A stretch of DNA of 64,000 nt from IMG/VR virus record IMGVR_UViG_3300007512_000001, positions 1 to 64,000 of that record; one strand, given 5' to 3'. The translations under genes were made by a program, and so were the position numbers. Position 1 is the stretch's first letter, and each line of letters opens with the position of its first letter. This DNA comes from a virus. The notes below the pieces were generated by a model that had not been told where the DNA came from, searched no databases, and saw only the letters and a list, made by a program, of their open reading frames with translations. Positions 3,293 to 8,637 of the stretch are shown here, piece by piece.

Positions 3293-4126
3293 ATGATTAA
3301 ACCCCGTATAGATATTGAATATACGTGTCCTTCATCCGTTAAACCAAGTTGGAATACATATCTATTAGATTCTAATCGCAACAAAATATCAGAAAGTTGC
3401 ATCATATCCGATCGTTCAGAAACTACAGCACTTTTGGAAGCATCGATAGATGATAGTATAGATACTGAATATACGTTAGTATTAGAACTTTACGCAAGCG
3501 AAATAGAAGGAATAGATATATGTAACTTATGTATTAACGATATAGATCTTAATGATTTAATACACAGACGCAGCCACGTATATGCAAATTGCACAGATGA
3601 TCCGAATTATATCTTACAACTTATCAATGATGAACGATTTAGTGTGCATATGCTTCCGCACGAAGTTAATAAAGAACAAAAAAATTATAGATTATTAAGT
3701 TATAGACACAATAAAATAACTGGTAATACTCCTAAAGTTTTTAATAATAGAACTAACGAGTTTACAGAGTATACTGGTTACCTTTTAACAGATAATAATT
3801 ATGTTATTAAAGGTACTGAACTTTATTACGATTGTACTGATGATCTTTGTTTCATTGTTAAACATACAAATAATGAAAATTTATATGTCGAAGGGGAATT
3901 GTATGTGCCAGAACATAGTTACTTAGGAGGGGTGTACGAGCCAAAGTTTACTTATACTGGGTCTGGCAAAGCAGAAAATCTTTTAAATTTTATACATAAT
4001 AAAAAACTTATACACCATATTCCAAACAGCTCTTGTTTAAGTATGCCCGGAAGATGGGAATTTAAGTTTAGAACTCCTTTATACTCTTGGATTACAGATA
4101 ATATTTTTGGTGATGATCTAACTTAA
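3293..4126 (+). CDS. hypothetical protein, paralogue 2
   Basis: 277 aa; IDLNDLIHRR, GRWEFKFRTPLYSW. Confidence 0.75.
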   Translation: MIKPRIDIEYTCPSSVKPSWNTYLLDSNRNKISESCIISDRSETTALLEASIDDSIDTEYTLVLELYASEIEGIDICNLCINDIDLNDLIHRRSHVYANCTDDPNYILQLINDERFSVHMLPHEVNKEQKNYRLLSYRHNKITGNTPKVFNNRTNEFTEYTGYLLTDNNYVIKGTELYYDCTDDLCFIVKHTNNENLYVEGELYVPEHSYLGGVYEPKFTYTGSGKAENLLNFIHNKKLIHHIPNSSCLSMPGRWEFKFRTPLYSWITDNIFGDDLT

Positions 4127-4190: not shown

Positions 4191-4943
4191 ATGGAGATAG
4201 AGATAGGAGTCGACTATAAGTATAATTCAGAAAAAACACCAAATGTAACATTTTATCTATTAGATAGTAACGGAAATATTCCTGATTACAATCATAAACT
4301 AAACGTCAATAATAAATTACAAGAAAAGTTTAATTTTAATGTACTTATTGACCAAAAAAAGGAAGAAAATTATACGTTAGTCGTTGAGCATTCAAACGGC
4401 ATATATCCTGACGACTATTTAAATGGTGACTTTGGTATAGACATAACGTCTTTGTATATGGATGGTGTTGATTTATTAGATCTTATACACAGAAGAGGAA
4501 CCGCGTATTTAGACTGTACACGGGATCCATTTTATCTAATTAATCAGATTAATAATGAAAAATTTTCTGTTGAAATTTTACCTACTGAGTTTGATAAATT
4601 TAAAAAAAATTACCATATATTAAATTACAGACATAGTGGAGTTAAGGGACTCAATCCATATACGTATAATAGAGAAAAAGAAGAAAAAGAATTTATAGAA
4701 GGTGTTTTTATTTCAAATTGTGGGACAAAATATATTAAAGATGGACAATTATATTATATCTGTAGCGATGATATACACTTTATTGCTGATAATTCAAACA
4801 ATAAAGATGTGTTTGTTAAGGAAGGAAAACTTATGCATCGAGTTTCTAAGAGTGCATGTTTAAATTTAAACGGAAGATGGGAGTTTAAATTTAAAACACC
4901 TTTTTATGGATGGGTTGTTGACAACATATTTGGTAACGATTAG
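4191..4943 (+). CDS. hypothetical protein, paralogue 3
   Basis: 250 aa; VDLLDLIHRR, GRWEFKFKTPFYGW; aligns with 3293..4126 along its length. Confidence 0.75.
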   Translation: MEIEIGVDYKYNSEKTPNVTFYLLDSNGNIPDYNHKLNVNNKLQEKFNFNVLIDQKKEENYTLVVEHSNGIYPDDYLNGDFGIDITSLYMDGVDLLDLIHRRGTAYLDCTRDPFYLINQINNEKFSVEILPTEFDKFKKNYHILNYRHSGVKGLNPYTYNREKEEKEFIEGVFISNCGTKYIKDGQLYYICSDDIHFIADNSNNKDVFVKEGKLMHRVSKSACLNLNGRWEFKFKTPFYGWVVDNIFGND

Positions 4944-6055
4944 CGGCCAATAGTATTTTTCTCATAAACAGAATTATGAGTTTGTGCGCAACGCACAAAC
5001 GTAGTGCATTTAGATAACTGTTTAAGTTTCCTAGCACCAGCATATGTACAAGTGCTACGAATGCCACCTAATATATCTTGTACAGTATTAGCAACAGGGC
5101 CGCGATACGGCACTAATACTTCACGCCCTTCGGAAGATCTATACTCTTTTAATCCACCAAAGTGTTTATTATTGGCGGCCTGTGAACTCATGCCATAAAA
5201 TTGTACAAACTGTTTCTTTTCCTCTACGTATCTAATATTTGCTGTTATTCCGCGCGGAGCAATTTCGTCTGTTCTATATGTTTTAGTAATAATCTTGCCT
5301 TCACCTTCATCGTGCCCGGCAAGCATGCCGCCCAACATTACGAAATCTGACCCCCCTGCGAACGCTTTCGCAATGTCACCAGGGCTATTGCATCCCCCAT
5401 CAGCAATAATATGCCCGCCAAGCCCATGAGCCGCGTCTGCACATTCAATAATAGAACTAAGCTGAGGGTAGCCAACCCCAGTCTGGAGGCGAGTAGTACA
5501 TACACTGCCAGGACCAATTCCAACTTTAATAATATCCGCTCCATTTAATAATAACTCCTCTGTCATTTCTCCAGTCACTACGTTACCGGCAATAATTGTT
5601 ACTGTTGGGTATTCATCTCTAAACTTCTTTACAAACTCACTAAAACGTTCTGAGTACCCATTTGCGACGTCAATACAGACATAACGCACATCAGTAGCAT
5701 TTCTAACTTCACGCCATTTTTCCAAATCTGTATCAGCAATGCCTATGCTCATTGCTACAGAGTTTAATCTTTTATAGTTTTGTGTGTCTTTAAAATACTC
5801 TATAAGTTCCTTTGCACTATAAGTCTTGACAAGACAAGTGAATAAGTTTAACTCTGTAAGTTTGTCAGCCATAGTAAATGTGCCAACACCATCCATGTTA
5901 GCCGCCATGATTGGAATACTGCCAAACTTCCAACCACTATTTCTAAATACAAATTTTCTATTTAAACTTACTTCTTTGCGGGATCCTAGCGTTGAACGCT
6001 TAGGACGAATAAGGACATCTTTAAAATCTAATTTAATATCTTCTTCCAGGCGCAT
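4940..6055 (-). CDS. guaC: GMP reductase
   Basis: MRLEEDIKLDFKDVLIRPKRSTL, KVGIGPGSVCTTR, IIADGG, FYGMSS, YRSSEG motifs of GuaC. Confidence 0.95.
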   Translation of the reverse strand: MRLEEDIKLDFKDVLIRPKRSTLGSRKEVSLNRKFVFRNSGWKFGSIPIMAANMDGVGTFTMADKLTELNLFTCLVKTYSAKELIEYFKDTQNYKRLNSVAMSIGIADTDLEKWREVRNATDVRYVCIDVANGYSERFSEFVKKFRDEYPTVTIIAGNVVTGEMTEELLLNGADIIKVGIGPGSVCTTRLQTGVGYPQLSSIIECADAAHGLGGHIIADGGCNSPGDIAKAFAGGSDFVMLGGMLAGHDEGEGKIITKTYRTDEIAPRGITANIRYVEEKKQFVQFYGMSSQAANNKHFGGLKEYRSSEGREVLVPYRGPVANTVQDILGGIRSTCTYAGARKLKQLSKCTTFVRCAQTHNSVYEKNTIGR

Positions 6056-6705
6056 TATTTCTTTTCCTTACAGTTATCAAAATGCCACCTAATCATTGCG
6101 TTACTTTTTCCTTCTTTACCGCAATGAGGACAAACGTGAGTAGGTTGAGGTTTGCCTTTATTTGCTTTGCCTATTTTATTTTTTGTTTCTTCTGAACGTT
6201 TTGTTCCTAACATACGTTGTCTTGCGTTTTCTCTAAACTCATCAGTACGCTTTTTTCCTTTAAACTTTTGTCTTGCATGTTCAGCATATTGCTCTTTGCG
6301 TTCCGAGTTTTCTCTCCAAAACTGTTTCATTGATTCTGAACGTCTTTCTAATTCTTCTTTAGAAGGCTTTCTTCCTTTTGCTTTTTCAGACATAAGTTTT
6401 TTTGCTTCTTCTGTATGATGTTTTATACCGTGAGATATAGGACTTGCATTGTATCCGTTATTAAAACTATCAAACTTTTCTATATAAAACTCTTCTCTTT
6501 TGTCTATTATAGTACCATCAGCTTTTTCAAGCAAGTCTATTTTAAAATTTTCAATTCCATGTTTTTTCATAGCTTTGTATAACTTTTTTTCTATACCTTG
6601 CTTACAATCTCTAACATGCCAATTATAACGTTCTTCAATACTGTAAGAAGTAATGCCTATATAAACCTTATCGTTTATAGTGTTGCTGATTTTATAAACA
6701 AACAT
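6055..6705 (-). mobile_element. free-standing GIY-YIG homing endonuclease with NUMOD3-type DNA-binding repeats
   Basis: VYKISNTINDKVYIGIT, REEFYI, GYN motifs; HTEEAKKLMSE / RSEETKNKIG repeats; C-terminal CPHC; stop overlaps the guaC ATG (TAATG). Confidence 0.9.
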
Positions 6706-6738
6706 AATATTCTCCTACTATGTTTATTTATCTCTTTA

Positions 6739-6774
6739 TCAACTCTTATAAGCATTATCTTCTTCAATTCTCAT
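6739..6774 (-). pseudogene. orphaned original 5' end of guaC (MRIEED then stop)
   Basis: ATG AGA ATT GAA GAA GAT = MRIEED, the canonical GuaC N-terminus, directly after a TTGACT-17-TATAAT promoter and upstream of the endonuclease. Confidence 0.75.
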
Positions 6775-6781
6775 AACATAT

Positions 6782-6810
6782 ATTATATATGCTAGGGTAA
6801 AATAAGTCAA
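6782..6810 (-). promoter_or_regulatory. sigma70-type promoter for the guaC/endonuclease unit
   Basis: TTGACT-17-TATAAT on the minus strand. Confidence 0.8.
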
Positions 6811-6822
6811 TAGTATTTTGAA

Positions 6823-6830
6823 TATAAATA
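6823..6830 (+). promoter_or_regulatory. T4-type late promoter
   Basis: TATAAATA ending at 6830, ATG at 6837; similar TAAATA at 1304, 1980, 2682, 9051, 28220. Confidence 0.65.
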
Positions 6831-6836
6831 CATAAT

Positions 6837-7442
6837 ATGAAAGTTAGTGACTTAGCAAGCAAAGTGGGCAGTGCTTTACTTAAAACTAGAAAGAGCGGCC
6901 AAACGAAACACCGAGGAAGGAAGTATAAGATTGGTTATACTCCTGACGGCCTATCCTATAAAAAATATATTCAAGACGTATATGAAGGATTAGACGATTT
7001 ACCTGATGTACTATTTCACGTTACTTTCACAAAGAATGTTGACAACATTAAAAAGAAAGGGCTAGAACAGTTCCACCCAAGTAACTGGGTAAAAGGTCCA
7101 GGCGGCTCACGCTATAACGAAGACGCTGGTATATTTGCATTTGACAATCCAGAAGATGCTATTAACTGGGCAAGCAAAATGCGTTTCGACCATGATGCAC
7201 CTATCTCAATTGTAAGACTTACTATAGATCCAGACAATCCCATATGGGATGAAGATCCAGCGCAAGATGCCATCTTGCAAGCAACACTAAAAGGCAGAGC
7301 ATTACGAAGCGGTTCAAACATAAGCGCAGATCGTATTGTAGACGCTATAGACTTGGCAGATTTAGGCACACCGTTAAGTCATGACATGGGCAGAGATGAA
7401 TGGATCTCAAAAGTTGCCACCCCTGCATTAATTGCCAAATAA
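6837..7442 (+). CDS. ADP-ribosyltransferase-fold (Tpt1/DarT-like) domain protein
   Basis: LFHVTFTKNVDNIKKKGL (HxT..N..I...GL) followed by GIFAF and IVRL strands. Confidence 0.55.
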   Translation: MKVSDLASKVGSALLKTRKSGQTKHRGRKYKIGYTPDGLSYKKYIQDVYEGLDDLPDVLFHVTFTKNVDNIKKKGLEQFHPSNWVKGPGGSRYNEDAGIFAFDNPEDAINWASKMRFDHDAPISIVRLTIDPDNPIWDEDPAQDAILQATLKGRALRSGSNISADRIVDAIDLADLGTPLSHDMGRDEWISKVATPALIAK

Positions 7443-7445
7443 ACA

Positions 7446-7474
7446 TTGACAAAAATCAATTCTAACTATATAAT
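7446..7474 (+). promoter_or_regulatory. sigma70 consensus promoter
   Basis: TTGACA-17-TATAAT; ATG at 7481. Confidence 0.85.
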
Positions 7475-7480
7475 ATATGT

Positions 7481-7786
7481 ATGTCGGAAGTGAAAGAATT
7501 ACATTTTTATATCGATAGCGAATGGGATTTCAAACCCCCTGTTATACGCATATGGATAAATGATTTTCTACTAAGTGAGCGGGGAGTTACTCCCAAAAGG
7601 CAGGAAGGGAAATACTTAGATGAAAAAATTATCTTAGTATTAGAACCGGGGAGTTATAAATTAGTAGTGGAAAATATAAAAACCGCTTTAGCAGAAATAC
7701 AATTACATACTATTACGGTCAATGGTTTAAATTTATCATTCAAGACATTTGATGATATTCATTATGAAGCAACACTAGAAGTATAA
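7481..7786 (+). CDS. hypothetical beta-rich protein
   Basis: 101-aa ORF directly after a perfect promoter. Confidence 0.7.
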   Translation: MSEVKELHFYIDSEWDFKPPVIRIWINDFLLSERGVTPKRQEGKYLDEKIILVLEPGSYKLVVENIKTALAEIQLHTITVNGLNLSFKTFDDIHYEATLEV

Positions 7787-8637
7787 TGTTAAAAATAAAA
7801 CTAGAACAAGACTCCAACACTAACTCTTATTATAGGATTAAAATAAATGGAGAACTACTGGATTATGGATTCTTAGAAAACAAAGAAGAGTTATTATGCT
7901 ATAAAGGCATAAAATTCTCAGATAAAGAAAAAACTTATATAAGCATTTCTTGTTCTGACGATAGATTTTTAAGAGTGAACGAAATTAGTTTTTATACATC
8001 TAGAGTAGTATCTTCAAAAGACAGTAAATATAAAAATTGGAATACTGATCATATTGCTAGTGGGGTTGTTGAAAATATTAATGAAGTAATGCAAGGGGAT
8101 TTCAGCAATGTAATCTTATCAGACGCTGTGGGTGGCAATCGAGAGTGGTTTTTTGTTATAGAAATTGATGAAACAATTTCGTTATGGGATCCTGACATTA
8201 GTTGGCGCAATCAGCCGCTACCGCCACCGCCACCGCCACCGCCGCCGCCACCGCCGCCACCGCCACAGGTTCCTGCAGACGAATTTGGTCCACCTAGACC
8301 TGACTCAGAATTCTGCTCTGATGTTTATAAGTTTGACAACGGCATTACATACGACGGTGAATTTCACCGTATAATATTCAATGATAAAACTATTGATATT
8401 ATAGTAGAAGGTTTTGGAAAAATGACTCTTGTTGACAAAACTTTACTAGATGGTGAATTTATAAATGGTAATTTTATTAGCGGAACAAAAACCAATCCAG
8501 ATAAAACAAAAGAAATAGGATATTTCTTAGGAGATAATAATAATATTAGACTTATTAAAGGAATTTATATAGATATAGAAGGACTCTCTCACAAAATTAA
8601 CACCGGGGAACAACATAACAAAGGAGAAAATCAATGA
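7786..8637 (+). CDS. two-domain protein with 15-Pro linker and MORN-like C-terminal repeats
   Basis: P15 run; YDGEF...GFGKMT...LDGEFING repeats. Confidence 0.65.
   Translation: MLKIKLEQDSNTNSYYRIKINGELLDYGFLENKEELLCYKGIKFSDKEKTYISISCSDDRFLRVNEISFYTSRVVSSKDSKYKNWNTDHIASGVVENINEVMQGDFSNVILSDAVGGNREWFFVIEIDETISLWDPDISWRNQPLPPPPPPPPPPPPPPPQVPADEFGPPRPDSEFCSDVYKFDNGITYDGEFHRIIFNDKTIDIIVEGFGKMTLVDKTLLDGEFINGNFISGTKTNPDKTKEIGYFLGDNNNIRLIKGIYIDIEGLSHKINTGEQHNKGENQ
8221..8265 (+). repeat. (CCR)15 trinucleotide repeat encoding polyproline
   Basis: 15 CCG/CCA codons in a row. Confidence 0.95.

Follow-up and report, generated by a model that had tools for sequence, protein, structure and literature searches.

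A GIY-YIG homing endonuclease gene within guaC of a marine T4-like phage probably supplies its own copy of the first guaC codons

Results

An endonuclease gene lies between two guaC starts

The guaC gene of a marine T4-like phage, which encodes guanosine monophosphate (GMP) reductase, is preceded by a second, short copy of its own 5' end, and a gene for a homing endonuclease lies between the two. We analyzed this locus in a window of 64,000 nucleotides (nt), positions 1 to 64,000 of the IMG/VR virus record IMGVR_UViG_3300007512_000001, in which guaC and the features ahead of it are encoded on the minus strand. An initial annotation of the same sequence had proposed that the endonuclease gene was inserted into guaC and provides a recoded replacement start in place of splicing.

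All elements of the described arrangement were recovered. In the direction of transcription, a sigma-70-type promoter (TTGACT, 6810-6805; 17-nt spacing; TATAAT, 6787-6782) that fits the consensus at 11 of 12 positions and scores highest in the region is followed, as reported, by ATG AGA ATT GAA GAA GAT (6774-6757; R_new), which encodes the first six GuaC residues, MRIEED. The frame was said to stop right after these codons; it instead runs for 11 codons (MRIEEDNAYKS) and is closed by TGA at 6741-6739. A late-promoter motif, a ribosome-binding site, and a GIY-YIG gene then follow in the predicted series: the leader carries the T4-type, late-promoter-like motif GATAAATA (6732-6725, 19 nt before the endonuclease ATG) and then AGGAG, and the free-standing endonuclease open reading frame (ORF) of 216 amino acids (aa) occupies 6705-6055. 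Its TAA shares one base with the ATG of the second guaC start (TAATG). This start, ATG CGC CTG GAA GAA GAT (MRLEED), continues, in agreement with the earlier description, as an intact, full-length guaC of 371 aa (6055-4940), and the repeat GAAGAAGATA noted at the two ends of the cassette is present at 6765-6756 and 6046-6037.

The protein read from the second start is a GMP reductase by several measures. It matches the Pfam IMPDH/GMPR family (1.2e-69), contains the GIGPGSVCTTR loop with the catalytic cysteine, and lacks a CBS insert. Its closest matches in the PDB are the human GMP reductases (GMPR1/2, 1e-127, compared with 1e-47 for IMPDH), and because this alignment begins at residue 2-3, the second start supplies a complete N terminus.

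The endonuclease is assigned by sequence to the I-TevI/Seg type of GIY-YIG homing endonucleases. Pfam detects GIY-YIG (PF01541, 24.5 bits; cut-off 22.6) and NUMOD3 (25.3 bits; cut-off 20.4) domains, and residues 3-90 match the I-TevI catalytic domain (1MK0, 1LN0; 2e-9). A protein search returned ∼25 clusters that are 45-100% identical to the endonuclease (P0002-P0015 at 55-79%), and its relatives in cultured T4-like phages are Seg-like proteins of 31-34% identity, one of which lies inside the split DNA polymerase of phiAS4. Across 25 relatives, Tyr-4, Tyr-15, Arg-26, His-30, Glu-71/72, and Asn-86 are invariant, as are Cys-192, Cys-195, His-208, and Cys-212 of a C-terminal CxxC...H...C motif. 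Because the Pfam and I-TevI-domain matches are accompanied by invariance at all catalytic positions, the enzyme looks catalytically active.

Seven relatives carry guaC with an empty site

To find empty sites, viral contigs were scanned for the exact promoter-plus-start string. In seven viral contigs (L162-L168), the identical promoter and ATGAGAATTGAA lead straight into an uninterrupted guaC (MRIETDVKLDFK...). None of the seven contains the endonuclease or a second guaC start, so that the pattern which would count against the insertion, a duplicated start in relatives without the endonuclease, was looked for and not seen among them. At one fixed site, genomes that are otherwise homologous thus either carry the element or lack it, and the empty sites place it after codon 6, where the initial annotation had put it.

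The closest of these alleles, L164, was used to define the boundaries of the insert. L164 and the window are identical at 68 of 68 positions from the promoter to nt 12 of the upstream start, and they are 95.9% identical from guaC nt 20 onward. When the guaC gene in use in the window is compared with that of L164, mismatches occur at nt 4, 6, 7, 9, 13, 14, 18, and 19, and then 157 identical nt follow, with no further mismatch until nt 177. Because all eight mismatches lie at nt 4-19, the donor-type tract (N_start, 6055-6037) comprises exactly guaC nt 1-19, which is codons 1-6 and the first base of codon 7, and its boundary falls between codons 6 and 7. Compared with the empty site, the whole insert, as defined by blastn of L164 against the window and by comparison of the start regions, spans 6762-6037; it is thus close to the ∼720 bp given before, at 726 nt, and it replaces 7 nt (ACAGACG).

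The resemblance between the two starts was also measured with a weight matrix trained on 62 natural guaC starts. Among ∼128,000 18-mers of the window, the upstream start ranks first (score 25.7) and the replacement start ranks second. Based on the 68/68 identity to L164 and these two ranks, the resemblance of the two starts is not due to chance. Within 1200 nt upstream of 80 endonuclease-free guaC genes, start-like 18-mers occurred at the background rate (19 in ∼96,000 positions).

A target-site duplication produced by staggered cutting or transposition was considered and found unlikely, as the two copies differ at 4 of their first 9 nt, and cleavage by GIY-YIG enzymes produces overhangs of 2 nt.

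The same design occurs in two distant alleles, and a third locus resembles a loss footprint

Three endonuclease-bearing alleles are legible as DNA: that of the window and those of contigs L249 and L250. The L250 endonuclease is 52% identical to that of the window (GuaC, 61%), and the L249 endonuclease is 51% identical. Both contigs have an 18-nt guaC-like start (MRIE.. remnants; ATGCGAATTGAAGTTGAG in L250 and ATGAGAATCGAAGACGAA in L249), after which come an A-T-rich leader with TAAATA, a Shine-Dalgarno sequence, and the endonuclease gene, whose stop codon overlaps a new guaC start as ATGA (MIVENELKLDFK and MIIESDIKLDFK, respectively). The genes upstream of the locus are unrelated among the window, L249, and L250. 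Because this design is common to three independent assemblies, an assembly artefact is unlikely. The shared layout, together with the donor-type tract of nt 1-19, bears out the proposal that the guaC start in use is a replacement copy that moves with the endonuclease.

The origin of the L250 start could be examined in endonuclease-free kin that share its upstream 62-aa gene (L332, L334, and L339). In these phages guaC starts with MRIEEDIKLDFK, and for this reason the start in use in L250 is considered imported, like that of the window. A separate observation concerns the sequence just ahead of the L250 remnant (L250:2938-2954), where 15 nt (ATATAGTAATATATT) resemble the window-type -10 region (ATATATAATATATGTT), unlike the endonuclease-free kin of L250; part of the promoter of an earlier host may have moved along with the remnant.

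In L358, no endonuclease precedes guaC. Between the upstream gene and the guaC ATG there are ∼22 nt that match the last codons of the endonuclease (..DNCRK..), and guaC itself has an unusual, foreign start (MLIENEP). The tail-similarity score of this locus, 15, is the highest among 160 loci (median 8; 95th percentile 10). This sequence indicates that deletion of the endonuclease can leave the imported start in service.

Other searches place the element as rare. The endonuclease is carried by <1% of >600 guaC-bearing viral contigs. A pattern that joins the endonuclease tail to the guaC DFKDV motif returned, from viral contigs, only the L250 contig plus 11 chance matches; a subfamily-specific DNA pattern had no match in prokaryote genome contigs; and a metagenome scan with the endonuclease family alignment gave, among the matches listed, only distant GIY-YIG genes.

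Distant GIY-YIG genes, 29-42% identical over parts of their length, were also seen just 3' of guaC in several phages (L358:2698-3315; L398:3030-3251; L375 and L376:3466-3915). Because other GIY-YIG genes thus adjoin its 3' end, both ends of guaC seem to attract endonucleases.

A predicted hairpin buries the endonuclease start in all three alleles

RNA folding of the leader gave a hairpin at 6731-6694 (minus strand), with a 5' arm at 6731-6716, the loop GGAGAA at 6715-6710, and a 3' arm at 6709-6694. The loop is part of the Shine-Dalgarno sequence, the 3' arm holds the endonuclease AUG and codons 2-4, and the late-promoter motif lies in the region of the 5' arm. In the window, this hairpin has 16 bp and a folding energy of -14.8 kcal/mol (z = -6.9), and none of 200 shuffled sequences was as stable. 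Equivalent hairpins are found in L250 (z = -6.1) and L249 (z = -4.3), with 14-16 bp over the three alleles, and the late-promoter motif is kept in both (GATAAATA in L250 and AATAAATA in L249). When the arms are compared in register, 93.8% of cells pair, versus 29-54% when the partner is slid. Five changes were noted in the stem: one is compensatory (A-U to U-A, tracking codon 2) and four are one-sided. Support for the hairpin was taken from the per-sequence z-scores and the in-register pairing. The presence in all three alleles of a hairpin that buries the endonuclease AUG and has a late-promoter motif in its 5' arm is new in the present analysis.

The same geometry, in which a stem sequesters the translation start and a late promoter lies within the 5' arm region, is known from I-TevI, I-TevII, I-TevIII, segB, and mobE, where the stem hides the start on early read-through RNA and the late RNA begins inside the 5' arm (PMC2988022). 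By folding, all three guaC alleles have it. The phage genome is T4-like, with a gp23 gene (2e-99) and a gp55-like protein (6.5e-7), and across the whole genome 27 of 52 NATAAATA sites are followed by an ORF start within 60 nt, compared with 14.6% of random positions. Because of the gp23 and gp55-like genes and the association of NATAAATA with ORF starts, a late promoter in the hairpin is plausible. On RNA read from the guaC promoter, the endonuclease AUG would be enclosed in the hairpin, and the endonuclease is therefore probably untranslated when guaC is first expressed.

The leader contains a second, apparently older remnant

Alignment with MAFFT showed that the L249 and L250 remnants do not align with the first start of the window; they align with a sequence further into the leader, ATAAGAGTTGATAAAGAG (6749-6732, minus strand; R_old), which adjoins ATAAATAA as their remnants do. 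This sequence resembles a decayed copy of guaC codons 1-6 in which the ATG (now ATA) and 5 of 18 positions have been lost. With a weight-matrix score of 6.9, it ranks 19th among the ∼128,000 18-mers and is the best position of the leader after R_new. R_old is probably an older remnant that was carried along with the cassette, and R_new, together with the 7-nt spacer AATGCTT between the two (6756-6750), would mark the latest entry; the spacer may be what preceded the start in a former host. The end of both remnants at nt 18-19 fits a fixed cut site at this point, away from the position of the endonuclease itself. Cleavage some way off the insertion site is known for I-TevI and other GIY-YIG enzymes (PMC2988022).

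Two further candidates were rejected. A longer remnant, in which the leader past the first 18 nt would correspond to decayed codons 7-13, was no better than shuffled sequences in local alignment to guaC 5' ends, and only the position-anchored R_old was kept. A third-level remnant in L250 (TTGA..GGATAT after the upstream gene) is too weak to claim.

The native guaC promoter and neighboring genes

The ATG of the native start lies 7 nt past the -10 box and has no Shine-Dalgarno sequence, and for these reasons the native guaC mRNA is probably leaderless. At eleven NATAAATA motifs, an ORF of ≥70 aa begins with its ATG only 5-7 nt further on, which is too close for a Shine-Dalgarno sequence; they lie at window positions 1302, 2682, 6823, and 24594 (plus strand) and 56098 (minus strand) and at genome positions 76640, 112791, 136390, 151274, 162381, and 169068, and <1 such site is estimated by chance, given the 14.6% rate at random positions. 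Leaderless mRNAs thus appear to be numerous in this T4-like phage, that of the 201-aa gene divergent from guaC among them.

Between this divergent gene and the guaC promoter, L164 has ∼600 nt that are absent from the window (L164:6975-7576) and contain an ORF of ∼190 aa; this intergenic spot is a mosaic junction. On the other side of the locus, two adjacent ORFs of 277 and 250 aa (3293-4126 and 4191-4943, plus strand) are convergent with guaC. They are clear paralogues with common DLIHRR, YRH, and GRWEFKFxTP motifs, and Pfam gave no match for the 250-aa ORF. A 283-aa ORF at 7786-8637 (plus strand) contains an unbroken run of 17 prolines.

Discussion

A specialized endonuclease with its own guaC codons

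From these results, we consider it likely that the cassette is a free-standing, I-TevI-like GIY-YIG endonuclease specialized for the 5' end of phage guaC, which carries its own replacement for codons 1-6. Sequence comparison shows a cassette of three parts: a leader with a putative late promoter in a predicted hairpin, the endonuclease gene, and its own guaC codons 1-6 overlapping the endonuclease stop. It sits between resident codons 6 and 7, with native codons 1-6 pushed upstream as a dead remnant, and full-length GuaC would be made from the imported start, which would make splicing unnecessary.

A likely origin is that a donor guaC had an endonuclease gene immediately upstream of it, and that this gene was copied into a recipient cut near nt 18/19. 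Homology would have existed on the downstream side only, and the joining of the upstream end to donor sequence ahead of the endonuclease would have duplicated nt 1-18. Later spread would be by ordinary homing, with the remnant (and the promoter where it is shared) serving as the left homology arm, and the two nested remnants of the window would record at least two homing steps. On early transcripts from the upstream promoter, the hairpin would block translation of the endonuclease, and guaC would initiate alone at its AAGGA-preceded ATG; late transcripts, which would begin within the 5' arm, would leave the endonuclease start accessible.

Several points weigh against this interpretation. The cut site, the immunity, and the timing of expression are all predicted from sequence. 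Codons 5-6 of the window remnant are GAAGAT and those of every empty-site relative are ACAGAC/T, so that the recipient may have been an EED-type allele; alternatively, with a left crossover at nt 12/13, these bases would come from the donor's own remnant. R_old is a single 18-mer (p ∼1.5e-4 at a fixed position and ∼0.008 across the whole leader). Covariation in the hairpin is not significant against shuffles (183/500, n = 3 sequences), the gp55 match is weak (6.5e-7), and the window shows no enrichment of the strict TATAAATA motif (7 sites versus 12 expected), the association with ORF starts having been measured with the looser NATAAATA.

As a tentative extension, which we regard as possible without favoring it, the cassette may be a portable start-codon module and represent a third route, besides introns and inteins, by which phage homing endonucleases live inside coding sequence. 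Such a module could enter any guaC, whatever lies upstream, and each entry without upstream homology would leave a native remnant, so that nested remnants would be a fossil record of serial host jumps. The constant 18-19 nt would then mark the cut site, and the remnant beside the late promoter may be an adopted operator.

Alternative explanations

It is doubtful that the remnant has been retained for a function, either as half of a homing site that acts as an autorepression operator at the late promoter or as a short ORF that tunes the opening of the hairpin. In each of the three alleles, an 18-nt remnant does adjoin the ATAAATAA motif in the same place, as does the decayed copy of the window, and I-TevI has an operator that is similar to its homing site and shares sequence with its late promoter (PMC2988022); in addition, the remnant ORF of L250 ends in an ATGA overlap with the endonuclease start, and that of L249 reads through the hairpin. 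However, a remnant beside the cassette is an automatic by-product of insertion there, and its position alone is no proof; the older remnant of the window has lost its ATG along with 5 of 18 positions, and the operator role is putative.

The initial annotation had gone further than a replacement start, proposing that guaC was repaired with a deliberately recoded, nuclease-immune 5' end and that GuaC synthesis depends on termination at the endonuclease stop through TAATG coupling. A stop/start overlap of 1-4 nt is indeed kept throughout, as TAATG in the window and as ATGA in the other two alleles, L249 and L250. The usual Arg2-Ile3 is found in 0 of 4 endonuclease-linked starts compared with 100 of 128 distinct free alleles (Fisher p = 0.003), and putative immunity of the replacement start to the nuclease is plausible. 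Against deliberate recoding, the replacement codons of the window (MRLEEDI) equal those of natural alleles in endonuclease-free phages such as L018 and L022 and look like donor flank. Against coupling, RNA that begins at the upstream promoter would have the endonuclease AUG hidden in the hairpin; if the hairpin works as in I-TevI, the endonuclease is silent on this RNA, and guaC, an early nucleotide-metabolism gene, therefore cannot rely on coupling during its normal expression. The guaC ATG also has an AAGGA of its own ∼9 nt 5' of it, where the RNA is unstructured (z = 0.44), and L358 retains a replacement start with ∼22 nt of endonuclease tail, the endonuclease itself being gone. The dependence on coupling is thus not borne out, and we judge this proposal as a whole unlikely.

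We find it very unlikely that the arrangement is old and vertically inherited, with the endonuclease-free alleles arising by loss of an enzyme that is no longer mobile. The three endonucleases are only ∼51% identical, which implies a long history, and loss does happen, as L358 shows. On the other hand, the insert and the 19-nt tract are the sole difference between L164 and the window, with the promoter and the next 157 nt identical, and a precise loss that restored a different native sequence would need an endonuclease-free template anyway. The unrelated upstream genes of the three hosts, the invariance of the catalytic residues in 25 relatives, and the rarity of the endonuclease among guaC-bearing viral contigs also argue against it.

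Restoration of the original frame from the upstream start by a group I intron, an intein, or translational bypass is excluded for practical purposes, as the initial annotation had anticipated for the first two: the Joint Genome Institute (JGI) label of "group I intron endonuclease" on relatives is the name of a domain family, Rfam gave no match at E ≤ 1 over 4500-7500, non-coding sequence amounts to 69 nt before the endonuclease ORF and 0 nt after it, the endonuclease gene is complete with Shine-Dalgarno sequence, start, and stop, Pfam found GIY-YIG and NUMOD3 but no Hint domain in it, and the upstream copy decays (R_old) while the downstream copy is in frame in every allele.

Significance and relation to known systems

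If the cassette is a specialized endonuclease with its own guaC codons, a selfish endonuclease can live within a useful gene with neither a ribozyme nor a protein-splicing domain, by swapping the first codons for its own copy. This would extend to phages, and to the 5' end, a gene-end replacement so far documented for the 3' ends of fungal mitochondrial genes. The locus offers matched natural states: the site is empty in some phages, is occupied in three alleles, and bears a footprint of loss in one. It also carries a warning for annotation, as short dead starts 5' of endonuclease genes and odd residues at positions 2-3 of a conserved enzyme are possible footprints of endonuclease traffic. Among the papers searched, none combines a homing endonuclease, GMP reductase, and a phage.

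The closest likeness in enzyme and mobility is to the Seg-type endonucleases (such as SegF and SegG; "intronless homing"), which have GIY-YIG and NUMOD3 domains and their own ORF beside the target gene, are present in some phages and absent from related ones, and are flanked by a short co-converted tract (PMC2988022). Seg genes are intergenic, whereas the guaC endonuclease lies inside coding sequence after codon 6, with its own stop fused to replacement codons 1-6. Free-standing endonucleases are also found in conserved genes of T4-like phages that are split and keep their function without splicing, such as Aeh1 nrdA/mobE, T4 39/60/mobA, and gene 43 of phage 25 (PMC2988022). In those cases two polypeptides reassemble; here the upstream piece is six codons long, dispensable, and decaying, and a single full-length protein is made.

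With respect to regulation, the geometry in the window, L249, and L250 is that of I-TevI, I-TevII, I-TevIII, segB, and Aeh1 mobE (PMC2988022). The guaC cassettes, which are known in this respect from predicted folds, differ in that the AUG and first codons are in the stem and most of the Shine-Dalgarno sequence is in the loop, and in that the 5' arm directly abuts a remnant of the target gene.

The exchange of a gene end has its counterpart in fungal mitochondria, where endonuclease ORFs in Allomyces macrogynus atp6 and in Glomus atp6, atp9, cox2, and nad3 carry a foreign C-terminal gene segment (PMC3630166). In both settings, the imported gene end is used in frame, and the native end is a displaced remnant that is closer to endonuclease-free relatives (PMC3630166); for guaC, this pattern is seen when the window is compared with L164 and when L250 is compared with L332, L334, and L339. 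The fungal cases concern the 3' end, whereas the guaC cassette replaces the 5' end with its start codon, spans only six codons, and resides in a T4-like phage. Its guaC piece overlaps the endonuclease stop and does not precede the endonuclease, and its regulation would be by a late promoter and a hairpin.

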